From contig FR881937.1 in the NCBI GenBank assembly GCA_000435615.1, forward strand, positions 1 to 60,927: 60,927 bases of DNA. Direction: 5' to 3'. Shown piece by piece: positions 33,522-48,767 of the stretch; positions within the stretch are counted from its first letter, which is position 1, and every line of letters starts with the position of its first letter. Source of the DNA: Firmicutes bacterium CAG:238 (GTDB lineage Bacteria; Bacillota; Clostridia; Peptostreptococcales; Anaerovoracaceae). The notes beneath the pieces are model-generated. The model had not been told where the DNA came from. It did no database searches and worked only from the letters and a program-made list of their open reading frames with translations. The position numbers were made by a program, and so were the translations under genes.

Positions 33522-33542
33522 AAACGCACGCTGCACGCTCTG

Positions 33543-34922
33543 TTATGAGCGCCAAAGCTCGATAAGTCCTTTTATGAGCGGCTCAATCCTTTCCAGCGGC
33601 AGGCGGCTGTAGTAAAAAATCAAAGCACTGGTTTCCTGGTCGGTTATTTCGGACAGGGGAACCATTTGAAGACCGAGTGACTTTGCCTCTTCGCAAAGCT
33701 GCTCGGCTTTTTTTCTTGAACGGACTTTTACCGTGAGGTTGATGCCGGAGTGGGTATCTATCGGAGAAGCGACGCCGCCTCCGTGTGCGGAAAATGCCGA
33801 CAGAGCCGCCTGAAGCTTCTGTGAATACAAACTCCGGAGCTTTCGGATTCCCGTGTAGTAATGGCCGTCCTCCATGAAAAATGCAAGCGTAAGCTGTTCC
33901 GCCTTAGAACAGGTCTGTGTATATTCATGCTTGATGGATCGGAATATCTGTGCCATCTTCTCCGGAAGCACCATGTACGAGATTTTTACAGCCGGAAAAA
34001 GGGTAGATGAGAAGGTTCCCAAATACACCACGCAGCTGCGATTGTCAAGGCCTTGGAGCGCAGGAACCGGCTTGCCGAAATAACGCAGCTCACTGTCGTA
34101 ATCATCTTCAATTATAATGCTGTTGTTTTGCGCGGCCCAATCAAGCAGTTCGTATCTCCTGCCTACAGGCATTACAGCACCGGTAGGAAATTGGTTTGAA
34201 GGATTTACATACACTGCGGATTGTATATTCGCAGGAAGTTTTGCAATTTCAATTCCGTCAGAGGCAACCGGGATGTGAGAAATCGTAAAGCCCGCATCAC
34301 GGAACATGCTTTGGACGGGGAGATAACCCGGCTCTTCCAGGCAGACTAAGCGCAGTCCCATTTTTATGAGAATTCTGGAAAGGTGGCTGGTGATCTGCTG
34401 TGTTCCGGCACCGATTACAATCTGTTCAGGACTTGCAGTAACACCGCGCGATGAATACAGATATTTTGAAATTTCGAAGCGCAGAATGGGTTCTCCCTGC
34501 GGGTCACTCTCGAAGAGAAGCTGGTCGGTGTAGTCATTAAAGACTCGGGCTGAGCATTTCTTCCACTTCACGAAGTCAAAACAACTCGGGTCACTTATAT
34601 AGGCGGATGGCTCGAAAGTAAAACCGCTGATTTCCGAAAGCGGTGCAGAGACTTTCGCGTGTGACGGAGAGGGAGAAATTTCCGCAATATAATAGCCGGA
34701 TTTTGGACGGCTGCTGATGTAGCCTTCAACAAGAAGCTGATTATAGGCGAGTTCGGCTGTAGTGATGCTGATGCCAAGGTCCTTCGACAAAGTGCGAAGG
34801 GAAGGAAGCTTTTCGCCGGATTTCATTTCTCCGGTGAGAATGCGTTGCTTAATTATGTCATACAACTGTAGGTATAAAAACTTCTCATTACTGTCATTTT
34901 GATTGATATAAATCGGTTTCAT
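33543..34922 (-). CDS. MocR/PdxR-type GntR regulator with aminotransferase domain
   Basis: wHTH LPSLR.LSKDLGIS..T...AY.QL..EGYI; NQFPTG, IIEDDYDSE, YLGTFS. Confidence 0.92.
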   Translation of the reverse strand: MKPIYINQNDSNEKFLYLQLYDIIKQRILTGEMKSGEKLPSLRTLSKDLGISITTAELAYNQLLVEGYISSRPKSGYYIAEISPSPSHAKVSAPLSEISGFTFEPSAYISDPSCFDFVKWKKCSARVFNDYTDQLLFESDPQGEPILRFEISKYLYSSRGVTASPEQIVIGAGTQQITSHLSRILIKMGLRLVCLEEPGYLPVQSMFRDAGFTISHIPVASDGIEIAKLPANIQSAVYVNPSNQFPTGAVMPVGRRYELLDWAAQNNSIIIEDDYDSELRYFGKPVPALQGLDNRSCVVYLGTFSSTLFPAVKISYMVLPEKMAQIFRSIKHEYTQTCSKAEQLTLAFFMEDGHYYTGIRKLRSLYSQKLQAALSAFSAHGGGVASPIDTHSGINLTVKVRSRKKAEQLCEEAKSLGLQMVPLSEITDQETSALIFYYSRLPLERIEPLIKGLIELWRS

Positions 34923-34964
34923 AATGTATATTTCCTCAAACTGTTCATATAAAAATAATTATTT

Positions 34965-34995
34965 TTGGATATTTTAATAATAACACATTGGATAT
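34965..34995 (+). promoter_or_regulatory. Putative PdxR operator (direct repeat)
   Basis: TTGGATAT at 34965 and 34988 in the divergent intergenic region. Confidence 0.45.
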
Positions 34996-35033
34996 ATAAT
35001 AGCAATATAAGAAGTGACAGAGAGGTGACAGAA

Positions 35034-35594
35034 ATGAACAGAAATGAAAAAACTTATACAATCGTGATGACGGCAATGATGACGTGCCTGGTGCTTCTCA
35101 CAACCTATACTTTCAAAATTCCGACGCCTTTCCAAGGGTATGTTCATTTGGGGGATGCAATGATTTTCCTGAGCGTGCTTGTCGTAGGAAGAAAGAACGG
35201 TGCTGTGGCGGCTGCATTTGGTTCGGCTCTTGCAGATCTCTTAGGCGGTTATGTGGCATTTGCACCATGGACCTTTGTAATCAAGGGACTTATGGCTTTG
35301 GTTATGGGATGGTTCATCGATTTTATGACAAAAAAACAGAGCAAATCTCTGAAAGTCTGCGGGGTACCGCTGATTGAAATCGTGGGTATGGTTATCGCAG
35401 GAGCGGTTATGGTTCTCGGATACGGCGTTGCGGATGCGGTCCTTGCGGGAAACATCATGACGGGAATCCTCAGCATGCCTGCAAACTGCGGACAGTTCGC
35501 AGCGGGAGTGGTAATTGCAAGTGTTCTTGCGGCGGCTCTCTACAAAACCCCGGCAAAGAAGTATTTCACATACAGACTGGATGAAGCAAGATAA
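35034..35594 (+). CDS. ECF transporter S component (probably vitamin B6-type)
   Basis: GYVHLGDA, GSALADL.GGY..APWTFVIKG; divergent from the MocR regulator. Confidence 0.8.
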   Translation: MNRNEKTYTIVMTAMMTCLVLLTTYTFKIPTPFQGYVHLGDAMIFLSVLVVGRKNGAVAAAFGSALADLLGGYVAFAPWTFVIKGLMALVMGWFIDFMTKKQSKSLKVCGVPLIEIVGMVIAGAVMVLGYGVADAVLAGNIMTGILSMPANCGQFAAGVVIASVLAAALYKTPAKKYFTYRLDEAR

Positions 35595-35615
35595 CAAATA
35601 ATAAGGATACACAAC

Positions 35616-35656
35616 AAAATCCGGCGGATTCACAAATCGGAAGCTGCCGGATTTTT
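35616..35656. terminator. Bidirectional terminator
   Basis: AAAATCCGGCGG...CTGCCGGATTTT. Confidence 0.7.
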
Positions 35657-35682
35657 AGTGGAATAAGATTTATTTCGTTCTG

Positions 35683-36213
35683 TTAGTTTTTCTTTAACTT
35701 TCCTTCAACAATCATACGTGCAATTTTTTCGGCACAATATGCAACGGCTGTAGCACAGTGGAAAGTTCCGTTGTGATCCATGTATCCCTGGTCACCTTCC
35801 GGTGTCTTCCAGTCATATACAGCACCCATGTTGTGAATCATTACTTCCGAGCATAAGATTCCGTCGTATTCTTTGCGGAAGTCTTCAACGAGCTCACGAA
35901 TCATTTCGTGACATTTTTCATAATCACCGCCAAGATCGTTAATCGGTCTTCCGCAGCAAAGGCTGATTGCCCATGCAGCAGCGTTTAATGCACCGCAGGT
36001 TCCAAGGAGCGAGCATCCGCATCCGCCTGCAATGCCGAAGCAAGCCTGAAGCATATCTTCCGTAATTCCTAAATCAGGAAAAGCAGTATATAAACCGTTT
36101 AAGCAGCTCTGAATACAGTTGCCGTAATCCGTTTCCGTCTGGAAACCCACATCCATGGCTTTCTTCACGAGAGCTTCTTTTTCTTCATGAGATAATTTCG
36201 TATAATCCTGCAT
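35683..36213 (-). CDS. C-GCAxxG-C-C family putative redox protein
   Basis: NCIQS, GIAGGCG...GTCGALNA, GILCSE, C-terminal Cys. Confidence 0.8.
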   Translation of the reverse strand: MQDYTKLSHEEKEALVKKAMDVGFQTETDYGNCIQSCLNGLYTAFPDLGITEDMLQACFGIAGGCGCSLLGTCGALNAAAWAISLCCGRPINDLGGDYEKCHEMIRELVEDFRKEYDGILCSEVMIHNMGAVYDWKTPEGDQGYMDHNGTFHCATAVAYCAEKIARMIVEGKLKKN

Positions 36214-36440
36214 ATCTATTCGCCTTCTTTCTTTTGCATTTACCGTTTTCGATATCATTCGCCTAAAACGGCGGATTGTAGCTACATTTTAATTTATACA
36301 TACGCAAAAAACAAGCAAATCAAGAAAATAACAAGATAATTAGCAAACGGGTAGATTGTAATCAGGTTTTGGAAATGGTACTATAATCTCAGTTAAACGA
36401 AAAAAGATGCCATACGGGCATTTGAGAGGGAGGAAATAAT

Positions 36441-38141
36441 ATGAAGTTACTGGTTATCGGAGGTTCTGCGGGCGGTGCATCCACTGCGGCCAGAGTACGC
36501 AGATTGAATGAAGAAGCAGAAATTACGATTTTTGAAAAAGGCAGAGATGTATCGTTCTCCAACTGTTCACTCCCGTATTATACAGGCGGAGTTGTAGAGA
36601 GCAGTGAAGATTTGATTATGATGTTCCCGGAAGACTTCAAGGCAAAACACAATATTGATGTTTATACGCAGACAGAGGTTTTGAAGATTAACAGGGCAGA
36701 GAAAACAATTACCGTAAAAGATTTGAAAAACGGAGAAACAAGGAATGAAGCTTATGACAAGCTTGTACTCGCAACCGGGACGGAGCCGGTTATGCCGGGA
36801 AGTATTGAGGGCATTCATTCCCCGCATGTTTTTACAATTCGTAATGTGGTGGATATTGAACGGCTTCAGGCGAAACTTGACGAAGAAAGCACAAAAAACA
36901 TTGCAGTAGTCGGCGGGGGATTTATCGGTGTGGAAGTTGCCGAGAACTTAAGAAAAATCGGAAAAGAAGTTACCCTGATAGAAGGCACGAAGCAAATATT
37001 GGCACCTTACGATTATGATATGGTGCAGATTCTGCACAAAGAACTGGACGACAACGGCATTACACTTCATGTTTCGGCGACGGTAACCGCCATAGAGAGC
37101 AAGCAGGTAAAGGCTGTAAAAGACGGAAAAGAATTTACGGTTGCCGCAGATGCTGTGGTTATGGCAGTCGGTGCAAGACCGAAGACCGAACTTGCAAAAG
37201 ATGCCGGTCTTGAAATCGGAACCACGGGTGGAATTTGGGTTGATCACAACTACCGGACAAGCGATGCGGATATTTACGCAGTGGGAGATGCCATCGAATC
37301 CTATAATATGCTTGCACATGCGCCGGGCAGGATTGCACTTGCAGGCCCTACGCAGAGACAGGCACGTGCGGCGGCTGACCATATTTGCGGAATGTATAAC
37401 ACAAACAAGGGTTATATTGGTTCTTCCTGCATCAAAGTCTTCGGACAGAATGCGGCATGCACGGGACTTAACGAAAGAGAAGCCAAACGCCTTGGATATT
37501 CCTACGATTCTGTTATGATTTTCCCTATGGACAGAGTGGGTCTGATGCCGGGTGCAAACTATATGGTTTTCAAGCTGGTATTTGAGATTCCTACGGGACG
37601 AATTCTCGGCGCACAAGCAATCGGAACAGGCGAGTGCGATAAGCGCGTGGATGTAATTGCGGCCATGATTACAATGGGTGGCAGGCTTGAAGACTTGAAA
37701 GAACTGGAGCTCTGCTATGCACCGCCGTTCTCAACCGCAAAAGATGTTGTAAACTTAGCGGCATTGGTGGCACTTAATGTATTAAACGGACGAATCAAAC
37801 AAGTCCATGTGGACAAAGTAAGAGAACTTGTTGAACAGGGTGCGTATATTATCGATGTCAGAGGAGCCGGTGAACTGAAAACGGGTCACCTTAAGGGGGC
37901 ACATCATATTCCTCTTAATGAGCTCAGAGACAGACTGGATGAAATTCCAAGGGATATTCCGGTATACCTGCACTGCAGATCCAGCCAGCGCTCCTATTAC
38001 GCAACCTGCACTTTGATCGAAAACGGTTTCACGAATGTGTACAATATCAGCGGATCTTTCCTCGGCATCAGTCTTTATGAGTATTTCAACGACAAAACAC
38101 AAGGAAGAGAACCGATTGTGACACAATATAATTTTGAATAA
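36441..38141 (+). CDS. CoA-disulfide/persulfide reductase with C-terminal rhodanese domain
   Basis: GGSAGG, redox Cys SFSNC, GGGFIG, YAPPFS..KD, rhodanese IDVR...HCRSSQRS. Confidence 0.88.
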   Translation: MKLLVIGGSAGGASTAARVRRLNEEAEITIFEKGRDVSFSNCSLPYYTGGVVESSEDLIMMFPEDFKAKHNIDVYTQTEVLKINRAEKTITVKDLKNGETRNEAYDKLVLATGTEPVMPGSIEGIHSPHVFTIRNVVDIERLQAKLDEESTKNIAVVGGGFIGVEVAENLRKIGKEVTLIEGTKQILAPYDYDMVQILHKELDDNGITLHVSATVTAIESKQVKAVKDGKEFTVAADAVVMAVGARPKTELAKDAGLEIGTTGGIWVDHNYRTSDADIYAVGDAIESYNMLAHAPGRIALAGPTQRQARAAADHICGMYNTNKGYIGSSCIKVFGQNAACTGLNEREAKRLGYSYDSVMIFPMDRVGLMPGANYMVFKLVFEIPTGRILGAQAIGTGECDKRVDVIAAMITMGGRLEDLKELELCYAPPFSTAKDVVNLAALVALNVLNGRIKQVHVDKVRELVEQGAYIIDVRGAGELKTGHLKGAHHIPLNELRDRLDEIPRDIPVYLHCRSSQRSYYATCTLIENGFTNVYNISGSFLGISLYEYFNDKTQGREPIVTQYNFE

Positions 38142-38161
38142 CTTATAAATTATGACTTGAG

Positions 38162-38197
38162 CCCCTTGCTGCTTCCGTGCGGCAGGGGGATTGTTTT
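38162..38197 (+). terminator. Rho-independent terminator
   Basis: CCCCTTGCTGC-ttccgt-GCGGCAGGGGG then T-rich tail. Confidence 0.7.
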
Positions 38198-38394
38198 CGA
38201 TTTGTACAGGCTCACAAAGGTGTAAAAAATGTCAAAATAGCAAAAAAGTTAACAAAAATAGCAAAAAAATTAAATACATTTGTTTTTATTTTGTTAAAAT
38301 GACAATAGATATAACAATATTTACATTTTTTAGGGGGATTGTTTTATACGACAATCTTGGTATTATCACTTATTTTATTTAGGAGGTTTTAGTT

Positions 38395-39927
38395 ATGGCA
38401 GAAACCAAAAAGGCTGAACGTCTGCCTAATAAGTTTGAGGCTTGTTTACCGGTTCTCGTGCTGTTAGGCCTGATGGTAGCAAATTCCGTATTAGAGTGGG
38501 GAAATGACCCGCACTTATACGTATTGATGGCAGTTATTACCGTTGTGCTTGTTGCAAAACGCTGCGGCATATGCTATAAGGATATGTTAGCCGCAGGTTT
38601 CGACTCGCTTTTTCAGTCACTTGAAGCAATGTTCATTCTGTTATTCGTAGGATGCTTGGTTGGTACATTTGAATATGCCGGAACAATTCCTGCCCTTGTA
38701 TATTACGGATTGAAGTTATTCACGCCGGCTATTTTCTTACCGGCAGTATGCTTGCTTTGCGCAATCGTAGCGATGGCATTGGGTTCCGCTTATACAGTAA
38801 GTGCAACATTAGGTATTGCGTTCCTGACAATCGGTGCAACCATGGGTGTTAACCCGGCACTCATCTGCGGTGCGGTTCTCTCCGGTGCTTGCACAGGCGA
38901 CAAATTCTCCCCGTTATCCGATACAACAAACCTTGCGTCTGCATCTGCACAGACAGGATTATTTGACCACGTTAAGGCAATGATCGGAACCACATTCCCG
39001 ACATTCCTTATCGGTTTCTTAATCTTCTGCGGAATTTCATTTGCAGGTGAAACAGGTGCTTACGATCCGGAACTCGTAGACGGATTATCCAATGCAATCA
39101 AGGATCACTTCCAGTACATGAGCCCTGTTCTGTTAATCCCTGTACTTGTTATCCTTGCAGTTTCCGTATTACAGATATCTGCAATTCCTGGTATCCTGCT
39201 CGTTGTATTAACAGCCGGTATCTTCATGGTTATCTTCCAGGGTGCAGGCTTCCCTGAATTCATTTCAGCGGCACACTACGGTTACTCCGCAGAAACAGGC
39301 AACGAATTAGCTGACCAGTTACTTAACAGAGGTGGAATGGATTCCATGCTGTGGACCATCAACATGGCATTGATCGCAATCGGTTTCGGCGGCATGTATG
39401 CTAGAGCAGGCTGTGTTGAATCCTTATTAGGAAACCTCATCAAGGATATCAGAACACCGTTCCAGATGGCTGTTGCGGTTATCTGTACCGCAATGTTCAC
39501 AATCCTGACGATGTGCGACCAGTACTTAAGTTTAATCATTCCTGCAACCATGTACAAAGAAAAATTCGACGAACTCGGACTTTCCAGAAACATGTTGTCA
39601 AGATGTATGGAAGACGGCGGAACATTGTTCTCACCACTGGTTCCATGGTCAACTTGCGGTGTATACCACTCCGGCATGTTAGGTGTTCCTACATTATCAT
39701 ATTTACCGTACTGCTTCGTAAACATTTTGAACCCACTGATTTCCATGGGTACGGCAGCTATCGGCGGCAACATCCTGTATGCTGACGGTTCCAAGACCGG
39801 ATTCTTCGGCGGCAAGGTAAAGAAAGGCCACTTCGTTGCGGCGGCTCCGGAAGAAGCACACGAAATCGCTATGAAGGCTCTGGAAGCAAAGAGAGCAAGC
39901 GGCGAATACAAGCAGATTAGTGCTTAA
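38395..39927 (+). CDS. NhaC-family transporter (MleN/amino-acid type)
   Basis: AGTIPAL.YYG, GDKFSPLSDTTNLAS, RGGMDSM, LSRCMEDGGT..SPLVPW. Confidence 0.88.
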   Translation: MAETKKAERLPNKFEACLPVLVLLGLMVANSVLEWGNDPHLYVLMAVITVVLVAKRCGICYKDMLAAGFDSLFQSLEAMFILLFVGCLVGTFEYAGTIPALVYYGLKLFTPAIFLPAVCLLCAIVAMALGSAYTVSATLGIAFLTIGATMGVNPALICGAVLSGACTGDKFSPLSDTTNLASASAQTGLFDHVKAMIGTTFPTFLIGFLIFCGISFAGETGAYDPELVDGLSNAIKDHFQYMSPVLLIPVLVILAVSVLQISAIPGILLVVLTAGIFMVIFQGAGFPEFISAAHYGYSAETGNELADQLLNRGGMDSMLWTINMALIAIGFGGMYARAGCVESLLGNLIKDIRTPFQMAVAVICTAMFTILTMCDQYLSLIIPATMYKEKFDELGLSRNMLSRCMEDGGTLFSPLVPWSTCGVYHSGMLGVPTLSYLPYCFVNILNPLISMGTAAIGGNILYADGSKTGFFGGKVKKGHFVAAAPEEAHEIAMKALEAKRASGEYKQISA

Positions 39928-39970
39928 TTTCTTTTTGCACAGACATATTTGTAAGCAAAGGGGAGGCAGA

Positions 39971-40501
39971 ATGGTTTTTAAAGGAATTAATATGCGCGAA
40001 AGAAGCAAGCGAAAACGCATACTCATGTTTTTCGGCTGCCTTGGCATCACAGCTTTGGAAATTTGGCAGAAAAATTATTTTTTTGCCGTAGTGGCATTGA
40101 TTTTAGCATTCTTTTGTATAGGATACAACAAGGAACACGTGATTTCGGAAGAGGGCGTGGATATTCGATATGTTTTCTTGGGAATACCATACAACTATCG
40201 CTGGACCTGGGATCAGATTACGGCAATGCGTCCCGACTATAAAAAGGCCAAACCGAACATCATGATGGAAATCGCAAAGGATGTGTCCGTAAGAGCCTTT
40301 GTTTTTACCCCTGAAGATGCGGTTAAAGTTATGGAGTTCGCTCAAAGAATGAATCCGGAGGCGTATGTCGACAGTCGTACGGAAGCAGAAAGAGAAGCCT
40401 ACAAAGAAGAGCGCGACAGAATGATTGCCGAAAAACAAATGCAGATTCGCCGCCAGAAACAAGCCGAGAAAGCAAGAAAGAAAAAACACAAAAACAGATA
40501 A
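39971..40501 (+). CDS. Hypothetical membrane protein
   Basis: RBS GGGAGG; TM hairpin, beta-rich region and charged tail. Confidence 0.65.
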   Translation: MVFKGINMRERSKRKRILMFFGCLGITALEIWQKNYFFAVVALILAFFCIGYNKEHVISEEGVDIRYVFLGIPYNYRWTWDQITAMRPDYKKAKPNIMMEIAKDVSVRAFVFTPEDAVKVMEFAQRMNPEAYVDSRTEAEREAYKEERDRMIAEKQMQIRRQKQAEKARKKKHKNR

Positions 40502-40511
40502 ACCCAAAAAG

Positions 40512-40560
40512 AAAGCCGGTCATCCGCATGATTAATCAGCATTCGGAAACAACCGGCTTT
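40512..40560. terminator. Bidirectional terminator
   Basis: AAAGCCGGT...ACCGGCTTT between convergent genes. Confidence 0.65.
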
Positions 40561-40574
40561 TGTTGTACGTTTTG

Positions 40575-41099
40575 TTATTTTTCAAGTATGCCGCCTACGA
40601 GGAGGTAATATTCCGGTATACTGGTACCGTCAGACCACAGAATATCGAATCCGAAGCAGTCTTTAACCATCTTTACGGCAAGCATCCCGAGGGATTCAAG
40701 TGCGTAGCGCATCTTATCCGGATGAACGCAAGGGTGACCACTAAGGCGTGCACACTTTTTGCACAATGTGCATTCTTGTGCAGCAAGGGCTTTGCTGCCG
40801 GGGCAGACTTCCTCCATGGCGAGCATTTCTTCATCGTGGATTTTTTTCTCTGCAAAAAGACGGTCTTGCGCTTCCGCTACCGTTGAGGCGCCTTCGTTTG
40901 AAATGCGGTCGACGATGAAATGAAAGCGTGAAAACTGCAGCCAATAGTCTTTGGGATCGAAATTGAAGTCCGGGCACGCCCATGTTTCGCCAAAGCCCGG
41001 GCATTGCGAGCATTTGCGATAGGTTTCGTCGTAGTTGTAATATTTGTCAAGCATTTCGTCTACATCAAGATATGTTTCAAAGCGTTCTTTATAATACAT
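40575..41099 (-). CDS. DUF2284-family Cys-rich metal-binding protein
   Basis: CSQCPGFG..WACP, CTLCKKC......CVHPDKMRYALESLG; RBS AGGAGG. Confidence 0.8.
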   Translation of the reverse strand: MYYKERFETYLDVDEMLDKYYNYDETYRKCSQCPGFGETWACPDFNFDPKDYWLQFSRFHFIVDRISNEGASTVAEAQDRLFAEKKIHDEEMLAMEEVCPGSKALAAQECTLCKKCARLSGHPCVHPDKMRYALESLGMLAVKMVKDCFGFDILWSDGTSIPEYYLLVGGILEK

Positions 41100-41109
41100 T
41101 GGATGCCTC

Positions 41110-41319
41110 CTATTCTTTCGCATTGAAAAGTCTGAATTTTTTCCAAAATACGAGGCCCAAAGCCACCGCAGCGGCAGCAAACCGTATGGAAATGATGTAG
41201 AAGGTTGGGCAGTCCTCAACATACTTTGTAAGGGGGTAACTGAGTCCCCATAGAATTGCTGCAATAACAAGTCCGGTAAATGCTACGCCTTCAGACGGCC
41301 GATGTTTTTTACTTGTCAT
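41110..41319 (-). pseudogene. Truncated EamA/DMT transporter (first two TMs only)
   Basis: AILWGLSYPLTK and SIRFAAAA are EamA N-terminal motifs; only 69 aa, stop abuts the next gene's RBS. Confidence 0.7.
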
Positions 41320-43189
41320 TTTTTGAATCTCCTTTTAGTGCTATCAGTGCCAGCTGCACACCGACACCCTTCATCGAAAAGTTTATATGAAAATTGGTTC
41401 GTACATCCTCTTGATAAACATCAAGCTGAGGCGAAGTCGGAATCAGATCGTGCAAAACGCTCAATGTATCCGAGCCGTCAGAGAAGTTTAAAGAGGAAAA
41501 ATATGTGAAAATATCTGATGAACGGTTCATCGTATATTTCATTACGGAATAAATGCCCGGCGGCAGATTCAGGTTGAAGCTGAAGTCTATCTCGTCCTTG
41601 AATTCATTTAACACCGTTCGCACCTGGTGCAGCGACGAGTCCTTTTTGCAAAGGCTTTGGATGCTGTCGTTGTAATTATAGACAATTACAGCAAATGCTG
41701 CAGGCACCGTATCATTGATGCGAATGACACAATAGTGCTTACCCCAGCAGATAATGTCGCCATGCACAAAGGAGGCTGCCTGATATACATAGAAAGATGA
41801 CTTTTTGATTGCGTTTGATGTTACAAGCGACGGAAGACCCTTCAGAAGAGTTCCATCCTGCTCTCTGTCTCGCAGCCGAAGTGTCAGCCACGGGTCGGAT
41901 GAGCGCAAAAGCTGGCTCAACACATAAATCGGAGCTGCAATTGTATCGTTTCCGTAGGATATAAACGGCTGTGCATTGATTGTTACTGCTTGCTTCAGCA
42001 CAACCGAAAACCCGGCGGCAGTGAGCATCATGCGCAGTCGATCGACCTCCGTGGAAGAGTCCGTGGGATAAAACAAAAGGGTTACCCTGGACGGATGCAG
42101 ACAGTCCAGTATATGAAAAAGATTAAATTTCATCTCCCGAAAATCTTCCAGGGTGATTTGAATGTTTAATTTATAGTCAATGAAGGTAATGGGTTTGCCG
42201 CTTCTGTCGACATTTATCTCCAGCTTCAGGCTGTTCACCACGGAAGAACTGTTCTTCTGTGAGTTCAAAGAAGACAAAGTAGACTTAATCAAATATGTGG
42301 CTTTGTTGGCAGAAATCGGGGTAATGATTTCGGGACGCAGTTCGCTCTTGACCATAGGCTTGAAATGTGCACGGTGCTCTTCCGGCGTCCGCTTAAACCA
42401 TTTATAAAAATATTTTTCGTAATACGCAGTGGTTGAAAATCCGACATCTCTGGCAATCTGGCTGATTTTCTTGTTTGTGTCAAGCAGCTGAATTTCCGAC
42501 CATTCCACGCGTGCAAAGCACAGAAATTCACGGAAATTCATGCCGGTGCAGTCTTTGATGATATGCGAAATGTAAAATTCGCTGAGGTGTTCCATCGACG
42601 CCAAATCTTCCAGCGTGATTTTTTCGGCATAATACTGATAAATATATGTAATAATTCGGCTGATGCGCTCGGTTGTGGTTTGGTCACCGTTTTCAAAATT
42701 GATGACAACATCGTTTTCAAACGCAAATAGATTGAAGTACTTGTCCAAATACTTGATGATGTCAACGATGAGATAAGTACACTCGCTTTTGTAGTTGAAA
42801 CTCTTAATCTCGTATGCGAGCAGGATCTGCAGAAGCTTTTCGCGCAGATTGTCGTGCCGCTTCGTCGTCGGCTTGTTGGAATAGGTACGATAGCAGGCTT
42901 TGCTGAGCGACGGAAAATACTGCGAAAAATAATGCGTGCTGATCTGAATCAGTGCAACGATATTTTCTTTGCCGGTTGAGGTCAGGCTGTGTACTTCATG
43001 ACCTGCATTGGTAAAAATATCGCCTTCCTTCAATGTGTAATGGCAGTACCCGTTTTTCAGTGTCACTTCTCCTTTCAGGACATAGACAAACTCAATATCC
43101 TGATGGTAGTGCAGCGGATACTCTTCTATTGACGCAATCGTAATATTGATCGGGAAATCATCCTGATAAGTAATTTTTTCAAATAACAT
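41309..43189 (-). CDS. Large AraC-family regulator (cupin + HTH + degenerate GH39-like C-terminal domain)
   Basis: PLHYHQDIEF cupin; HLSEFYISH...ISQIARDVGFS HTH; LVTSNAIKKSSFYVY resembles GH39 C-termini. Confidence 0.85.
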   Translation of the reverse strand: MLFEKITYQDDFPINITIASIEEYPLHYHQDIEFVYVLKGEVTLKNGYCHYTLKEGDIFTNAGHEVHSLTSTGKENIVALIQISTHYFSQYFPSLSKACYRTYSNKPTTKRHDNLREKLLQILLAYEIKSFNYKSECTYLIVDIIKYLDKYFNLFAFENDVVINFENGDQTTTERISRIITYIYQYYAEKITLEDLASMEHLSEFYISHIIKDCTGMNFREFLCFARVEWSEIQLLDTNKKISQIARDVGFSTTAYYEKYFYKWFKRTPEEHRAHFKPMVKSELRPEIITPISANKATYLIKSTLSSLNSQKNSSSVVNSLKLEINVDRSGKPITFIDYKLNIQITLEDFREMKFNLFHILDCLHPSRVTLLFYPTDSSTEVDRLRMMLTAAGFSVVLKQAVTINAQPFISYGNDTIAAPIYVLSQLLRSSDPWLTLRLRDREQDGTLLKGLPSLVTSNAIKKSSFYVYQAASFVHGDIICWGKHYCVIRINDTVPAAFAVIVYNYNDSIQSLCKKDSSLHQVRTVLNEFKDEIDFSFNLNLPPGIYSVMKYTMNRSSDIFTYFSSLNFSDGSDTLSVLHDLIPTSPQLDVYQEDVRTNFHINFSMKGVGVQLALIALKGDSKNDK

Positions 43190-43438
43190 GCTGATACCTA
43201 CCTTGCAATATTCACAACAATATCATCCCATAGAAAAATTATATAATGAAACCCACCCCAAAAGTAATAAGAATAATTAGATTTTATAGCAAAATAATTA
43301 TATTTTCAGACAATGTAATAGTTGTAATTAACTTTGCGGGACATTAAAATATGGTGTAAGAGTAAAAGTTCAATATGGGACAGCCTGCGGGAATGCAGGA
43401 CGAATTCAAAATACAAAGGAAAATCAGGAGGTATAATC

Positions 43439-44188
43439 ATGAGTAATGCAAGAGTATGTGTAATCACGGGAGCATCCGGCGGTATCGGTACGGAAGTTGT
43501 AAAAAAATATTACAATAACGGCTATGATGTAGTCATGCTCGACATTAACGAAGACACACTTAAGAAATTGATGGAGAAGGAAAACCTGGATCCTACAAGA
43601 GTTATCTATAAGGTACTAGATGTTTCCAGTGAACAGCAGGTAATCGATACAATCGCTGCAATCAAAGAAGAAAAAGGTAAGATTGACGTTCTGGTAAATA
43701 CTGCGGGAATCATAGGAAAATATGATGAAACGATTGATTACAGCTTTGAAATATTCAGAAAAATTTATGAAATCAATGTATTTGGTACTTTCCTTATGAT
43801 GAAGTACACCCTCCCTATCATGCTTGAACAGGGAAAAGGTGCAATCGTAAACTTCGGTTCCTGCTCCGGCATGACGGGATACACTTCCGAAATCGGATAC
43901 GGCTCCAGCAAATGGGCGGTTATCGGCATGACGAAGAATGTTGCAAATGAATATGCACGCCGCGGCATTCGAGCAAATTCCATTTCTCCGGGATGGGTTA
44001 ATACGGATATGCTCAAACAGTCACTTGAGGAATATAAGGAAACAGGTGACACTGTGAACTTCGGATGCATCGGTCGTCCGGGTGAACCAAGCGAAATGGC
44101 AGATGCTGTTTATTATCTCAGCTCTGACGAAGCGTCCTTCGTAAACGGAATCAACCTTCTCGTAGACGGCGGTAAGATGCTCGACTAA
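43439..44188 (+). CDS. Short-chain dehydrogenase/reductase (probably NAD-dependent)
   Basis: TGASGGIG, LDIN, NTAG, YGSSK, PGWVNT, LLVDGG. Confidence 0.92.
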   Translation: MSNARVCVITGASGGIGTEVVKKYYNNGYDVVMLDINEDTLKKLMEKENLDPTRVIYKVLDVSSEQQVIDTIAAIKEEKGKIDVLVNTAGIIGKYDETIDYSFEIFRKIYEINVFGTFLMMKYTLPIMLEQGKGAIVNFGSCSGMTGYTSEIGYGSSKWAVIGMTKNVANEYARRGIRANSISPGWVNTDMLKQSLEEYKETGDTVNFGCIGRPGEPSEMADAVYYLSSDEASFVNGINLLVDGGKMLD

Positions 44189-44219
44189 TTCAATGTTTAA
44201 ATAATAGGGGGAAAACGAA

Positions 44220-46595
44220 ATGTTAAATGAAAGACTGCAAAAAATGAGAACGAAACTGTGGAACTCCAGACCTTGCATCACAGCGGAGAGACTTGTTTTG
44301 GCAACAGAAGCATATCAGAAATTTGCGGGGGACGCAATTCCGATCTTCCGCGCGGAAGTTGTAAAATACATCATGGAGCACATGACGACTTTGATCATGG
44401 AAGATGAACTCATCGTCGGCACTCCAACCAATAAATACAGAGGCGCAAACCTTCATCCGGAATTCCAATCCAGCTCCTGGTATATCAGCGATATCGATGA
44501 TTTTCCGGTAAGAACGAAGGATCCGTATGACATCTCGCCGGAAGACAGAGAACTGATTCTCAAAACACTCCCGTATTGGGAAGGCAAGTCCATGGAAGAT
44601 ATGTCCAAGACTGCGCTTCCGCCGCATACGGAAGAATGCATCCGGGACGATATTATTACGGTCGGTCTCAGAAACGGTGTTTCCGGTGAAACAACCTGCG
44701 ACCACGAAAAAATCCTTACGGTAGGTCTTAAGGGCTATATGGATGAATGCCGCGAGAACATTGCAAAAACTCCGGGAACAAGCAAGGAAGACCAGGAAAA
44801 GATTAATTACTGGAAGGCATGCATCATCCAGTGCGAAGGTCTGATTATCTATGCACACAGAATGGCAGAAGAAGCAGAAAGACAGGCTGCTTGCTGCACA
44901 GACGAAAAGCGTAAGAAAGAACTCCTTACAATTGCCGAAAACTGCAGAGTTGTTCCGGAACTTCCGCCGCAGAGTTTCCAGCAGGCATTACAGTCTATCT
45001 GGTTCGTACATGTATATTTCCACATCGAAGTATGTACAACCGCTAACGGTTTCGGAAGATTCGACCAGTACATGTGGCCTTATTACAAGAAAGATGTAAT
45101 CGACGAAAAGAACATCACGCAGGATGAGGCACTTGAAATGCTCGAATGCTTCTACCTTAAGGCATGCGAGGTATTTGAAGTAAGAGATAAATGGTATGCG
45201 ACATCCTTCGCAGGCTACCCGATGTGGGAAATCCTCATCGTCGGCGGACAGACCCGTGACGGCAAAGACGCTACAAACGAGTTATCCTACCTCTGCCTGG
45301 AAGCTGCAAACCAGCTCAAAACAACGCAGCCGGTAATGGCAGTCAGAGTTTGGGATGGAACTCCGGAAGAACTTGTACGCAAGGGCTGCAAGATGATTCA
45401 GGAAGGACAGGCAAATCCGGGCTTCTTTAATGACTATGCAGCTATGCAGATGACGCAGGGCAAGGGCTGTACGATTGAAGAGGCAAGAGACTGGACAATC
45501 GTTGGCTGCATCCAGCCGGGACCGGGAGGCGGAACGACAGACGGTTCCCCTGACGCAGGTTATGTCAACATGGGCAAAATGCTCGAATTCGTTCTCCACA
45601 ACGGTGTTGATCCGTCAACAGGTAAGCTTATGGGACTTCAGACAGGAGACCCGAGAGACTTCAAGAACATCGAAGAGTTTAAAGATGCGTTAAAGAAACA
45701 GATCCTTCATCACTACAAACTTGTAACCGAAGGCTATAAGATTATGCAGAGCATGCATATGCTCAGATTCCCGGTTATCTTCGCATCCATGGTTACGAAG
45801 GGCTGTGTGGAAAGCGGCAGATCCGTTCAGGAGGGCGGTGCAAAGTACAGCACTGCGGGCCTTTACATCACAGGTGCAGCCAATATGGCAGACTCAATTG
45901 AAGCAATTCAGAAGTGCGTATTCGAAGATAAGGACATCACAATGGATGAACTCATCAAAGCACTTGATAATAATTTTGAAGGCGAAGAACGTATGCGCCA
46001 GCTTCTTTTGAACAAACCTGAAAAATTCGGAAACGACAAAGCTCATGTAGACGGAATTTACAGAGAAATGATGCACTTCATCGCAGACAATGTTCAGACA
46101 TGGCCGGACGCAAGAGGCGGCTGGTTCTCGTTCAATGTTCACTCACAGACCGTAAACGTATCACACGGTGCGGTATGCGGTGCAACGCCTGACGGAAGAC
46201 TTGCAGGAGAACCTTTCTGCGATAACGCTTCACCAATGATGGGACGCGATAAGAGTGGTCCTACCGCAACGGTTAAGTCCGTAGCATCCATGGGACAGGA
46301 AGCATTCCACGACGGTGCATTGTTCAACCTTCGTTTCGACCCGAAGGGCGTTGAAGGCGAAAAAGGTCTGGAAAGCATTGAAGGCGTAATCAGAACCTAT
46401 TTCGACCACGGCGGCGAACACATTCAGATCAACGTTGTTGATACAGAAACACTCAAGGATGCACAGAAACATCCTGAAAACTATAAAGGGCTGATGGTTC
46501 GTGTAGCAGGCTACATGGCTTACTTCACCGAGCTCGACAAGAGTGCTCAGGATACCATTATCTACAGAACCGCACACTTCGAAAAGGCTGAATAG
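44220..46595 (+). CDS. Glycyl radical enzyme of unknown substrate
   Basis: 791 aa PFL2-like; GRFDQY, Cys loop GCIQP (45504-45518), ATPDGR, HIQINV, glycyl loop LMVRVAGY. Confidence 0.93.
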   Translation: MLNERLQKMRTKLWNSRPCITAERLVLATEAYQKFAGDAIPIFRAEVVKYIMEHMTTLIMEDELIVGTPTNKYRGANLHPEFQSSSWYISDIDDFPVRTKDPYDISPEDRELILKTLPYWEGKSMEDMSKTALPPHTEECIRDDIITVGLRNGVSGETTCDHEKILTVGLKGYMDECRENIAKTPGTSKEDQEKINYWKACIIQCEGLIIYAHRMAEEAERQAACCTDEKRKKELLTIAENCRVVPELPPQSFQQALQSIWFVHVYFHIEVCTTANGFGRFDQYMWPYYKKDVIDEKNITQDEALEMLECFYLKACEVFEVRDKWYATSFAGYPMWEILIVGGQTRDGKDATNELSYLCLEAANQLKTTQPVMAVRVWDGTPEELVRKGCKMIQEGQANPGFFNDYAAMQMTQGKGCTIEEARDWTIVGCIQPGPGGGTTDGSPDAGYVNMGKMLEFVLHNGVDPSTGKLMGLQTGDPRDFKNIEEFKDALKKQILHHYKLVTEGYKIMQSMHMLRFPVIFASMVTKGCVESGRSVQEGGAKYSTAGLYITGAANMADSIEAIQKCVFEDKDITMDELIKALDNNFEGEERMRQLLLNKPEKFGNDKAHVDGIYREMMHFIADNVQTWPDARGGWFSFNVHSQTVNVSHGAVCGATPDGRLAGEPFCDNASPMMGRDKSGPTATVKSVASMGQEAFHDGALFNLRFDPKGVEGEKGLESIEGVIRTYFDHGGEHIQINVVDTETLKDAQKHPENYKGLMVRVAGYMAYFTELDKSAQDTIIYRTAHFEKAE

Positions 46596-46605
46596 GGAGA
46601 CCGTG

Positions 46606-47544
46606 ATGGAAAATAACACACGCAAGGCACTCGTGGGAGCGATACAGAAGTTCAGCACGGAGGACGGTCCGGGCATCAGAGCGACTGTGTTCCTCAAGGG
46701 CTGCCCGCTAAGCTGCAGATGGTGTCATAACCCCGAGCTTATCAGCTTCAAACAACAAATTATCGAAATGCCGAACAGCTGCATTAAATGCGGGTACTGC
46801 CTTACGCACTGCCCGCAGAATGCAATCTTTGTCGGTGAAGAAGATCAAAGAATACATGTGGACCGCGCGCTTTGCGATTGTTGTCTTGCTTGTACGAAAT
46901 TCTGCTATGCCGAAGCACTGAAGGCCGTAGCAAAGGAAATGACCGCAGAAGAGATTATGGCAGAAGTTCTGCAGGACAAAGGCTTTTATGAGCATACGGG
47001 CGGCGGAATGACTATCAGCGGAGGCGAAATGCTTTCGCAGGCGGATTTTGCCGAAGAACTTATAGAACTGGCACGCAAAAACGGTGTGCATGTGTGTCTT
47101 GACACATCGGGTTTCGGAGACGGCGACCGACTCATGAAACTTGCGGAATATGAAAACATCACCAACATTCTGTATGACATGAAGGCAATCGATAATGATG
47201 TTCATAAGGAATATGTGGGACAGAGCAACGAAGTGATTCTCGAAAATTTGAAAAGACTCGCGAACAATCCCGTTACGAATTCAAAAATCCAAATGAGAAT
47301 GCCTCTTATGCACGATGTAAATGACAAATGGGATATTATAGAGAAGACCGCAGAATTTTACAAAGAAAACGGAATCACGCATTTAACGCTCCTGCCTTAT
47401 CATAATTTGGGTTTTGCAAAGAAGAGAAACCTCGGACAGAAGCCTGTGGATTTCGTAACACCTTCCGATGATTACGTAGATAAGATAAAAAAATTTTTTG
47501 AGGAAGAAGCGGGAATGCTGGTAGAGGTTTTGGGAAAAACATAA
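46606..47544 (+). CDS. Glycyl radical activating enzyme (radical SAM with ferredoxin insert)
   Basis: DGPGIR..VFLKGCPLSCRWCHNPE, two extra CxxCxxCxxxC, SGGE, DTSG, LLPYH. Confidence 0.95.
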   Translation: MENNTRKALVGAIQKFSTEDGPGIRATVFLKGCPLSCRWCHNPELISFKQQIIEMPNSCIKCGYCLTHCPQNAIFVGEEDQRIHVDRALCDCCLACTKFCYAEALKAVAKEMTAEEIMAEVLQDKGFYEHTGGGMTISGGEMLSQADFAEELIELARKNGVHVCLDTSGFGDGDRLMKLAEYENITNILYDMKAIDNDVHKEYVGQSNEVILENLKRLANNPVTNSKIQMRMPLMHDVNDKWDIIEKTAEFYKENGITHLTLLPYHNLGFAKKRNLGQKPVDFVTPSDDYVDKIKKFFEEEAGMLVEVLGKT

Positions 47545-47557
47545 TAAATGCTTTTAG

Positions 47558-47620
47558 AAAACAATGAAGCTCGGCGACATTGGACATCAACCGGTCCTTT
47601 GCACCGAGCTTTGTTGTTTT
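47558..47620. terminator. Bidirectional terminator
   Basis: AAAACAATGAAGCTCGG...CCGAGCTTTGTTGTTTT. Confidence 0.7.
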
Positions 47621-48767
47621 ATATGAGTTGATATTTCACCAGGAAGCTTGCCGCATGGATAATGTCAGGCAGCAGCTTTACTGCGGCACGGGAAAGGAAA
47701 ATGCTCTGCGTGCCTTTTTCCTTGAGGTTGTATGCGATGAGGAACGTGAGGGCACGCGGATTTGCGACATTTCTGATATTTGTCAGAAGCTCCTTCGGAG
47801 ATTGTAAGGAGAAAACATCGCCGTACTTATCCAAAGCTTCCTTCGCCTCGTGATTGAATGTACGGGCGGCATCGGAAATTTTTTCGAGGAATATTTCGTT
47901 GGTGTACAGCACAAGCGGATCAAGCTCGAAAATCTTTGCACAGGCATCGGCCTCTTTTAATATTGTCTTAGGGAATGTGCCTTTTGCAAAAGAAAAATAA
48001 GTACCGTCGATAAGACCGAGAGCTTTCATCGCGTCAAGGTATCCAAGACGCAGGATACGCTTGGAATTAGCCTTGTCGAAGATCAGGATGCTGCCAAGAT
48101 CCCACTTCGGTTCTATATATACAAGATTCGGTGCCGTTTCGAGGGTTTCGTGTCTTACGACGCCCATGCCCTTAAGATTGACGGCTATGACATGAGTTGC
48201 GCCTTTTTTGACCGCCATCCCAACGGGGATTTCATCTGCATATCCGCCGTCGATATAATCCACACCATCTATCTCGCAGCTGTGTATTGCCGGGAAAGCC
48301 GAGGCACTTGCGATAATAAAATCAATCATTTTGCCGCTTGGGATATCTTCCTTATAAAGATAATGTGCATCAAAGGTCGGAAGCGAGACAACCGGAATCC
48401 CGTATACCATAGGCGAGTTTCGTACCACGTCTTCATCAATATACTTGGTGAGAAGTCCTTTCAACCCGGATGTTCCCGCACCGTGATTGAATACAATTTC
48501 GCGGGCATATTCGATCGGCTGGCTTCCTTCCGGCACATCAAAGACCATGTGCGTTTCGATCTCACGCCAAAGCTGTGCGGTAAGATCGACATTTCCCTGC
48601 ACAACCATTGCGGCGTTGATGGCTCCGACTGAGCAGCCTGTTACAATATCAATTTCAATCCCAAGTTCCGTGAGAGCCTGCCACACGCCCGCTTCATATG
48701 CGCCGCGGGAACCGCCGCCACCCAAAACAAGAGCAACCTTTTTTTGTTTTTTTGATCTCATAGCCAT
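47619..48767 (-). CDS. Patatin-like phospholipase
   Basis: GGGGSRG, GCSVG (catalytic Ser), ASASAFP, YIDGG. Confidence 0.9.
   Translation of the reverse strand: MAMRSKKQKKVALVLGGGGSRGAYEAGVWQALTELGIEIDIVTGCSVGAINAAMVVQGNVDLTAQLWREIETHMVFDVPEGSQPIEYAREIVFNHGAGTSGLKGLLTKYIDEDVVRNSPMVYGIPVVSLPTFDAHYLYKEDIPSGKMIDFIIASASAFPAIHSCEIDGVDYIDGGYADEIPVGMAVKKGATHVIAVNLKGMGVVRHETLETAPNLVYIEPKWDLGSILIFDKANSKRILRLGYLDAMKALGLIDGTYFSFAKGTFPKTILKEADACAKIFELDPLVLYTNEIFLEKISDAARTFNHEAKEALDKYGDVFSLQSPKELLTNIRNVANPRALTFLIAYNLKEKGTQSIFLSRAAVKLLPDIIHAASFLVKYQLI

Follow-up and report, generated by a model that had tools for sequence, protein, structure and literature searches.

The window analysed here is a stretch of 60,927 nucleotides (contig FR881937.1, our C27) from Firmicutes bacterium CAG:238, which has a genome of 2.12 Mb with 45.5% G+C. 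At positions 35,683 to 47,544, it carries a block of genes around an AraC-family regulator of 626 aa. We consider it likely that tandem repeats in this block are the operator of that regulator, which would govern the divergent operon coding for an SDR-family oxidoreductase, a glycyl radical enzyme (GRE) and its activating enzyme (AE), the operon coding for an NhaC-family transporter and a bPH_7 protein (NhaC-bPH7) and, less certainly, the gene for a CoA-disulfide-reductase-like flavoprotein (CoADR). What the sequence analysis shows is the motif with its spacing, how specific it is within the genome, how well it is conserved, and where it lies with respect to promoters; from these we infer the binding protein, the direction of regulation, an effector, and a role in metabolism. 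Below, numbers with the letters C, G, and L refer to contigs, genomes, and loci, respectively.

The conserved element is a tandem direct repeat of half-sites of about 18 bp with the core AGCAA-NN-(T/A)AAT, placed 21 bp apart and facing the regulated gene. The initial annotation of this DNA had listed six related 16-mers, all of which occur in the window (38237, 38258, 43265, 43286, 36328, and 36308). The two copies before NhaC agree in 15/16 positions and are 21 bp apart, as are 43265 and 43286; the distance from 36308 to 36328 is 20 bp, not 21. Identity is 14/16 between 38258 and 43286 and 13/16 between 43286 and 36328, and it is weak for the copies at 43265 (8–10/16) and 36308 (7–11/16). A whole-genome scan returned 17 sites with at most two mismatches from the 16-mer at 38258. 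A single 16-mer is therefore too common for an argument, and a test needs pairs as well as outside information. The sites and promoter elements of the window are given below with the scores of our main matrix. This matrix has 18 columns and was built from 24 GRE-upstream sites of 11 loci; the window and three near-identical relatives were left out, and close clades were down-weighted.

36307–36324 and 36327–36344, plus strand: tandem variant sites before CoADR, 20 bp apart, with an AACAAG core (11.8 + 14.3 = 26.1)
36356–36387, plus strand: candidate CoADR promoter, TTGTAA, 17 nt, TACTAT (or TATAAT at 36382), according to our own reading
38236–38253 and 38257–38274, plus strand: tandem operator before NhaC, 21 bp apart (12.7 + 18.8 = 31.5)
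38292–38300, plus strand: possible extended -10 of the NhaC promoter, TGTTAAAAT, read from the sequence by ourselves
43238–43243, minus strand: ATTATA (TATAAT on the minus strand), candidate -10 of the AraC gene, a conserved block in 18 aligned regions
43264–43281, plus strand: distal, clade-specific copy, corresponding to the 16-mer at 43265 (score -5.5)
43285–43302 and 43306–43323, plus strand: conserved tandem operator of the SDR-GRE-AE operon, 21 bp apart (22.5 + 12.2)
43322–43350, plus strand: GRE-operon promoter, TTGTAA, 17 nt, TAAAAT, from the promoter scan, with TTG and TAnAAT conserved in the alignment

The whole 2.1-Mb genome was scanned on both strands for tandem pairs with a spacing of 20–22 bp, using score thresholds that we had set ourselves. 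The highest-ranking pairs are:

Rank 1, C112:5397, score 35.5: paralogous locus, part of the training data
Rank 2, window 43285, score 34.8: GRE operator
Rank 3, C112:5033, score 33.3: paralogous locus, part of the training data
Rank 4, window 38236, score 31.5: before NhaC
Rank 5, window 36307, score 26.1: before CoADR
Rank 6, C46:33886 (to 33924), score 24.9: within the coding sequence of rpmJ (L36), between map and rpsM

Beyond rank 6, no pair in the genome scores above 22.1, and the sites before NhaC and CoADR are the two best non-GRE tandem pairs of the genome with this matrix. When the genome was shuffled locally 40 times (40-bp blocks), a pair of at least 26 occurred in 2/40 shuffles and a pair of at least 30 in 0/40; the expectation is 0.05 pairs of at least 26 per genome. 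A motif no more frequent here than in random intergenic DNA, which the initial annotation had named as an outcome that would speak against its proposal, is not what the ranking and the shuffles indicate. A second matrix, made from nine sites of four other genomes and nothing from this genome, again placed the C112, NhaC, and CoADR pairs on top; with the leave-clade-out matrix, the CoADR pair ranks fourth genome-wide. The pair on C46 is located inside the rpmJ coding sequence and is taken as a chance match. The same applies to a near-exact 16-mer at C99:5737, which is a lone, inverted copy between co-directional genes, upstream of an ABC-transporter ATPase gene.

The GRE operator is conserved in all 18 SDR-type loci that were aligned over the AraC-SDR intergenic region (regulator identity 57–100%). 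The alignment shows five conserved islands: a minus-strand TATAAT, two GCAA..AAT cores, the TTG of a -35, and a TAnAAT -10. The TTG directly follows the second core, with TAnAAT 17–18 nt beyond. In the window, the proximal half-site (end 43323) overlaps the -35 TTGTAA (start 43322) by 2 nt. The minus-strand TATAAT is likely the -10 of the AraC promoter, and the distal copy at 43264–43281, of which the 3' half GAATAATT is retained in only 7/18 aligned loci, overlaps the -35 region of this promoter. Of the pair 43265 and 43286 proposed in the initial annotation, the latter half stands; its conserved partner is not 43265 but the overlooked copy at 43307. The promoter of the regulator gene is overlapped by the operator region, and for this reason the regulator probably also controls itself and the DUF2284 gene located downstream of it.

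At NhaC, the distance from the start of the proximal site to the -10 is 38 bp if TGTTAAAAT is accepted, compared to 39 bp at the GRE promoter; the promoter scan offers another, weaker candidate. Since a terminator-like hairpin follows CoADR, NhaC should be transcribed here from a separate promoter. For 14 loci with an NhaC orthologue (at least 55% identity), the upstream 450 bp were scanned in gene orientation, and a pair of at least 20 was found in nine of them (at least 16 in 10/14). Pairs with 21-bp spacing precede orthologues of 67–71% identity in L060 and L063–L067/L069 and are also visible in L058, and the sequence between and around the half-sites differs from genome to genome. At the loci of NhaC paralogues (38–65% identity, from this and related genomes), a pair of at least 20 was found in 0/27, compared to 3/3 for the close orthologues in the same comparison.

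The pattern upstream of CoADR is a real conserved element of a variant type. A pair of at least 20 is located 96–131 bp upstream of CoADR in 6/13 loci, three of which are near-identical to the window. A separate count gave eight operators with CoADR as the first gene, which adds L071 and L074 from Oscillospiraceae. The pair is conserved in G006, G008, G013, and G018, and one count puts a related pattern in 12 further loci. In G013, the CoADR orthologue (86% identity) retains it (27.9) even though AraC sits on a different contig. It was found in 0/4 CoADR homologues (53–59% identity) from genomes where AraC was not found, and in 0/3 distant CoADR paralogues. In 14 further loci, the region upstream of CoADR has AAAAACAAG, about 17 nt, and (A/G)CAA(G/T)ATA(A/G)T(T/C)AGCAAA, often with AAATTG at the -35. 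The candidate CoADR promoter falls under the threshold of the promoter scan, which lists none for this gene. The initial annotation was correct in placing the motif before CoADR, but the element there is a variant one. The AACAAG core, the 20-bp spacing, and the greater distance to the -10 make its assignment to the AraC regulator less secure than that of the NhaC sites.

Relatives of the regulator were detected in 20 of 61 related genomes (E <= 1e-30), including a 44%-identical paralogue on C112 of the same genome. In the first 13 loci compared, AraC is divergent from the GRE-activase operon without exception; an SDR gene precedes GRE in the close clade, and an aldo-keto reductase (AKR) gene does so in two distant-clade loci. 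Every AraC-GRE intergenic region of these loci has copies of CAA-NN-(T/A)AAT in the 21-bp register, which persists at a regulator identity of 43–45%, where the remaining spacer is unalignable. For a wider set, a collection of species-representative genomes was scanned with an alignment of ten regulators. This resulted in 80 loci (1.385 Mb), mostly from Anaerovoracaceae (Emergencia, Ihubacter, Senimuribacter, Hornefia, Eubacterium minutum, Bacilliculturomica, Aminicella) and some from Oscillospiraceae (Flavonifractor, Oscillibacter).

In these 1.385 Mb, 86 operator clusters of at least 20 were observed versus 0.8 expected (30 shuffles, maximum 4). Sequence upstream of AraC was sufficient in 77 loci; a pair of at least 20 is found within 400 bp upstream of AraC, pointing away from it, in 53 of these, and six more have a pair in the range 14–20. 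The 21-bp spacing is exact in 71/72 non-CoADR operators (SDR-first 22/22, AKR-first 8/8, GRE-first 24/25, NhaC 8/8, M20 2/2, other 7/7). Scanning in gene orientation gave no operator pair before internal AE genes (0/20), permease genes (0/9), or C_GCAxxG_C_C genes (0/18). The motif is retained across genera while its flanks diverge. Conservation at orthologous loci, proposed as a check in the initial annotation, is found before the GRE operon, NhaC, and CoADR. Genome-wide specificity, phylogenetic footprints, negative controls, and conserved synteny back its suggestion of a shared operator that ties the 12-kb block to AraC.

Several observations weigh against the assignment to this regulator. 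Related genomes are not independent samples, so that locus counts overstate the support, and 18/77 AraC-upstream regions score below 14. Four of the 14 NhaC orthologues score below 14 as well (L054, L061, L062, L122); a weak-plus-strong pair in register can be seen by eye in L061, and in L054, L061, and L062 NhaC follows CoADR on the same strand. The element before CoADR has the AACAAG core and, in 6/8 cases, the 20-bp spacing, it is 13–16 bp further from the likely -10, and 7/13 CoADR orthologues remain below the threshold of the GRE-derived matrix. The copy at 43265 misfits the conserved half-site. Finally, a matrix from the paralogue clade scores NhaC (30.1) and CoADR (26.8) above the GRE operator (22.9), and a 44%-identical paralogue with near-same operators is encoded in the same genome.

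The genes of the block and a terminator-like element are:

35683–36258, minus strand: C_GCAxxG_C_C putative redox protein (Pfam PF09719, 58 bits)
36441–38141, plus strand: CoADR, a CoA-disulfide-reductase-like flavoprotein with a C-terminal rhodanese domain (Pfam Pyr_redox_2, dimerisation, and Rhodanese)
38162–38189, plus strand: terminator-like hairpin 3' of CoADR, an 11-bp stem followed by a T-run
38395–39927, plus strand: NhaC-family transporter (PF03553)
39920–40501, plus strand: bPH_7 (bacterial PH domain) protein, 3' of NhaC in the same operon (PF20794)
40575–41270, minus strand: DUF2284 predicted metal-binding protein, 3' of AraC on the same strand (PF10050)
41309–43189, minus strand: AraC-family regulator, 626 aa (Pfam HTH_18, Cupin_2, AraC_binding)
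43439–44188, plus strand: SDR-family oxidoreductase, first gene of the operon divergent from AraC (adh_short, adh_short_C2)
44220–46595, plus strand: GRE, 791 aa (PFL-like and Gly_radical)
46543–47544, plus strand: GRE-activating radical-SAM enzyme (AE), start codon uncertain (Radical_SAM and Fer4; TIGR02494 with 296 bits, cut-off 174)

The C_GCAxxG_C_C gene and the divergent CoADR gene have a 182-bp intergenic region in common, which contains the CoADR operator; the former gene adjoins CoADR/AraC loci in 18 related loci. CoADR stays under the cut-off for CoA-disulfide reductase (TIGR03385, 451 bits vs. 578.8). We take its domain architecture to be like that of the CoADR-rhodanese or persulfide-reductase type. 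NhaC marginally exceeds the cut-off for the NhaC Na+/H+ antiporter (TIGR00931, 373.5 vs. 370 bits), and the genome codes for four NhaC paralogues besides this copy. For SDR, no equivalog cut-off was attained in the NCBIfam scan.

The full block (AE-GRE-SDR, divergent AraC, bPH7-NhaC-CoADR, and the divergent C_GCAxxG_C_C-DUF2284) is maintained in L054 and L061–L065, and the gene order NhaC-bPH7 in L054 and L058–L069. DUF2284 is found in related loci behind AraC or behind C_GCAxxG_C_C. In the Oscillospiraceae loci, AE-GRE is accompanied by a divergent AraC and by the divergent pair of CoADR and C_GCAxxG_C_C, after which L072 and L073 have an SDR. Within the genus of the window organism, the accessory genes are fluid. 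The accessory part is not located beside AraC in G011, and only CoADR is adjacent in G006. In G012, a 98%-identical relative (L029, C148, 4635–5104), NhaC is reduced to fragments (residues 1–43 and 96–159), and the scan shows no NhaC operator there, which indicates that this accessory transporter is dispensable or being lost. In G018 and G008 (L031:7640–12900, L032), NhaC-bPH7-DUF2284 is replaced by an operator-preceded operon between AraC and CoADR, which codes for three M20 hydrolases (one ArgE/DapE-like, two of the amidohydrolase type) and a DcuC/YfcC-type carrier.

The regulator has a cupin domain (residues 23–80), a region with two helix-turn-helix (HTH) motifs (approximately 170–280), and a GH39-like C-terminal domain (285–626). 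The AraC/XylS-type DNA-binding domain is recognized by HTH_18 (53.2 bits vs. a cut-off of 33.6, residues 196–274), and the ligand domain by Cupin_2 (40.3 vs. 27.2) and AraC_binding (29.7 vs. 21.1), both at residues 23–80. Both HTH regions are near-invariant among ten homologues with 43–100% identity, matching the conservation of the core motif. The C-terminal domain (window 41312–42337, minus strand) has no Pfam match; it is conserved in full length in all aligned homologues. A model of the last 342 residues (40 sequences) reached pLDDT 88.1 and pTM 0.81, and its best fold match is the GH39 beta-xylosidase 2bs9 (E 6e-15, TMq 0.49, 13% identity), with the fold partly covered. From the model, this part may be a non-catalytic sensor or oligomerisation domain.

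A regulator dimer would occupy the tandem pair, with its two HTH motifs reading each half-site; the spacing of 21 bp corresponds to two helical turns. AraC (at I1-I2) and XylS bind as dimers to paired half-sites and activate via RNA polymerase at the -35. By analogy with AraC at araBAD, the proximal half-site at the -35 would lead to the recruitment of RNA polymerase. Effector sensing would fall to the N-terminal cupin domain, perhaps with a contribution from the GH39-like domain. The regulator is predicted to act on the SDR-GRE-activase operon divergent from it, on the transporter operon NhaC-bPH7 and, with less certainty, on CoADR-rhodanese via the variant 20-bp element, possibly together with the divergent C_GCAxxG_C_C gene.

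Small local regulons under an AraC-type regulator that uses tandem half-sites 21 bp apart are a textbook kind of system, of which this regulon is a new example. Searches of the full-text literature turned up neither this operator nor this regulon, no GRE associated with CoADR/C_GCAxxG_C_C, and nothing that describes a GRE linked to AraC, pyrrolysine, or Anaerovoracaceae as here. As in Escherichia coli AraC at araBAD (I1-I2), and also XylS at Pm, the regulator combines a cupin-type ligand domain with a double HTH. Further parallels to AraC/araBAD are direct half-sites of about 17–18 bp with a 21-bp periodicity, the proximal one overlapping the -35, and a regulator gene that is divergent from its target operon with its own promoter in the same intergenic region. 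Unlike E. coli AraC, the regulator is twice as long and has a GH39-like C-terminal domain of 340 aa, its motif AGCAA-NN-TAAT is unrelated, and it stays far from the NCBIfam AraC cut-off (NF007860, 45 vs. 208 bits).

The best NCBIfam match is to AryK/Rsp from Staphylococcus (NF047455, NF033869; residues 16–328, E 1e-29), which likewise consist of an AraC module and a large extra C-terminal region. With 103 bits versus a cut-off of 850 for AryK (NF047455), the regulator is not a member. AryK and Rsp regulate virulence or stress responses and are not known to be tied to a glycyl radical enzyme. PocR, the activator of the pdu/cob genes of the B12-dependent diol dehydratase, resembles the regulator in being an AraC-type regulator of a radical 1,2-eliminase pathway and accessory genes. 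It matches the HTH region only weakly (NF047788, 64 bits vs. a cut-off of 500, hence no member), and the sensor domain, the enzyme class (glycyl radical, not B12), and the operator are all different.

A second AraC-GRE module is encoded in the same genome on C112 (L044:1–7633). The paralogous AraC (624 aa, 44% identity) is divergent from GRE, activase, and an amino-acid permease, and the module has two tandem operators. The C112 GRE, also of 791 aa, is identical to that of the window at 696/791 positions. The 600-bp spacer of the C112 module has apparent remnants of an AKR gene, of which L036 and L038 have intact versions.

The repeats could be a real operator by which AraC controls only the GRE operon and NhaC, with the CoADR/C_GCAxxG_C_C element serving another regulator or binding mode and the sulfur-redox genes being mere neighbours. 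The deviating core and spacing, the below-threshold orthologues, and the fact that many genomes have GCAAAT..AAATTG as an overlapping third element are in line with this, yet the CoADR pair still ranks fifth with the main matrix and fourth with the leave-clade-out matrix, and the GRE operator of G006 itself has AACAAGATAATTA. The element also tracks AraC, being retained in trans in G013 and absent in the four genomes where AraC was not found, and CoADR adjoins AraC-GRE in two bacterial families; in L071, chaining of open reading frames joins CoADR to the GRE chain, but a tblastn map places it beyond AraC. We consider a separate control of CoADR rather unlikely. It is distinctly improbable that the paralogous AraC of C112 binds these sites, alone or in addition to the regulator of the window, in which case NhaC and CoADR would belong to the regulon of the other GRE module or to both. 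The C112 operators, which are of the AGCAA-NN-AAAT type, are indeed closer to the NhaC sites (GCAAAAAAAT) than is the window's GRE operator with its TAAT, and the paralogue-clade scores point in the same direction. Across Anaerovoracaceae, however, synteny joins NhaC and CoADR to the SDR-type AraC and not to the AKR-type module, AKR-type modules have their own amino-acid permease, and core position 7 is T or A among the NhaC sites of other genomes.

Unlikely, too, is a regulator that mainly represses at these sites, or that switches between repression and activation rather than being a simple co-activator. The operator region does overlap the divergent AraC promoter (TATAAT at 43238–43243, with the distal copy over its -35), and the hexamers of the GRE promoter are fairly good unaided (9/12). 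At the GRE and NhaC promoters, however, the sites adjoin the -35 on its upstream side and leave the -10 and the start site uncovered. Sites that abut the -35 from upstream are the usual geometry of activators (AraC, RhaS, XylS). A chance likeness of AT-rich intergenic DNA, a concern raised in the initial annotation, is hardly credible. The motif is A/T-rich, the 16-mer has its 17 near-matches in the genome, and one high-scoring pair is found inside rpmJ; this is countered by the genome-wide ranking and the shuffles, the exact 21-bp register, the conservation across genera with divergent flanks, and the clean negative controls.

The GRE has the features of the PFL2/glycerol dehydratase subfamily of glycyl radical enzymes: the PFL-like barrel (PF02901, 642 bits), the Gly_radical domain (PF01228, 113 bits) with its RVxG motif (RVAGY at 761–765), and a Cys loop, G-C430-I-Q432-P. 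With TIGR01774, it scores 669.2, slightly under the cut-off of 678.2. Among solved structures, glycerol dehydratase 1r8w comes nearest (E 2e-177), and the top matches of this kind, glycerol dehydratase, propanediol dehydratase, HplG, and CutC, are 1,2-eliminases. From the 1,2-eliminases with known substrates, the GRE differs in that its loop reads C430-I-Q432 rather than Cys-x-Glu, a Glu occupies the position of His164 in glycerol dehydratase, and the scores are far under every NCBIfam equivalog cut-off (HypD 603/1100, CutC 539/1050, HpsG 546/1000). Gene clusters of GRE 1,2-eliminases (glycerol/propanediol dehydratase, choline trimethylamine-lyase CutC, isethionate sulfite-lyase IslA, HypD/HplG) have in common with the window a GRE, an activase, a carbonyl reductase, and a dedicated transporter; unlike in such clusters, no microcompartment genes are seen at the window locus. 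Assemblies with the Cys-x-Gln family come from Anaerovoracaceae and, in some cases, from Oscillospiraceae, and many carry a label as isolates from gut or rumen.

Four groups of genes are linked to the operator in the genomes compared: carbonyl reductases (SDR or AKR), amino-acid-type carriers (NhaC, APC permease, AgcS, DcuC/YfcC), M20 amidohydrolases, and thiol/sulfur proteins. The latter comprise CoADR-rhodanese, C_GCAxxG_C_C (L121), a PatB-family C-S lyase with a glyoxalase-fold protein (L072), and a DsbA-like protein (L074). In L072:15280–18609 (Flavonifractor) and L079:15096–17171 (a metagenome-assembled genome of an uncultured Clostridia), a pair (22.9 and 21.7, respectively) precedes genes for a glyoxalase-fold protein and AgcS; in L072, the PatB-family C-S lyase is next in line (TIGR04350, 344.7 bits vs. 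a cut-off of 340). The thiol genes would fit a substrate that contains sulfur, and they would also fit a protection of low-molecular-weight thiols against a reactive carbonyl product.

Three rumen or gut genomes (L060:291–3700, L066:1100–1420, L099:786–3960) have the same 21-bp tandem operator before a corrinoid-protein gene. In L060 and L099, this gene is followed by MttB, with one in-frame TAG (codon 325), and then by MtbB, in which codon 353 of the L060 gene is an in-frame TAG; in L066, the contig breaks off behind the second gene. The methyltransferase operon of L099 is the divergent partner of the AraC gene. An operator before pyrrolysine-type (Pyl-type) methyltransferase genes for trimethylamine (TMA) and dimethylamine hints at methylamine chemistry, and this link suggests that a methylamine is released. 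The window's genome has the same methyltransferase operon at C61:7467–16800 (L126, L128, L188), with genes for the corrinoid protein, for MttB with a single in-frame TAG, and for MtbB; it is preceded by an NhaC paralogue (65% identity to that of the window) and a non-Pyl gene of the MttB superfamily. No operator pair was found at this operon, the best pair of the region (14.1) being located downstream. From these genes, the window organism probably decodes pyrrolysine and demethylates methylamines.

A tentative and rather doubtful interpretation, at which these methyltransferase operons hint, is that the regulon codes for a pathway for an N-methylated (quaternary or tertiary) hydroxy-amino compound. 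The Cys-x-Gln GRE would then be a new C-N lyase that releases TMA or dimethylamine, SDR/AKR would reduce the carbonyl product, and CoADR-rhodanese together with C_GCAxxG_C_C would keep thiols reduced in the face of this reactive product. Carnitine is disfavoured as the substrate because Emergencia timonensis, which has two AraC-GRE loci, makes no TMA from DL-carnitine according to section 5 of PMC8364193. A passage in PMC8571420 states that Anaerovoracaceae rose with choline chloride in a rumen simulation. If the methylamine link is true, it would have a bearing on TMA production in the gut.

The content of the regulon (GRE, activase, SDR/AKR, a transporter, CoADR-rhodanese) narrows the search for the substrate. 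The transporter varies between NhaC, an amino-acid permease, or DcuC with M20 hydrolases, and some genomes add a PatB C-S lyase or the Pyl-type methylamine methyltransferases. The operator offers a practical read-out, as candidate inducers can be screened with a promoter-reporter or an electrophoretic mobility shift assay, and it provides a sequence rule for finding further members of the regulon in metagenomes.

An Rfam scan of 33000–48000 gave no match at E <= 0.1, and hence no competing RNA element or riboswitch. Directly to the left of the block, at 33543–35594, the window codes for a MocR-type regulator (GntR plus aminotransferase fold) which is divergent from an ECF S-component of the riboflavin-transporter family. 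In G011, the genes for the MocR-type regulator and the ECF S-component abut the AraC gene.

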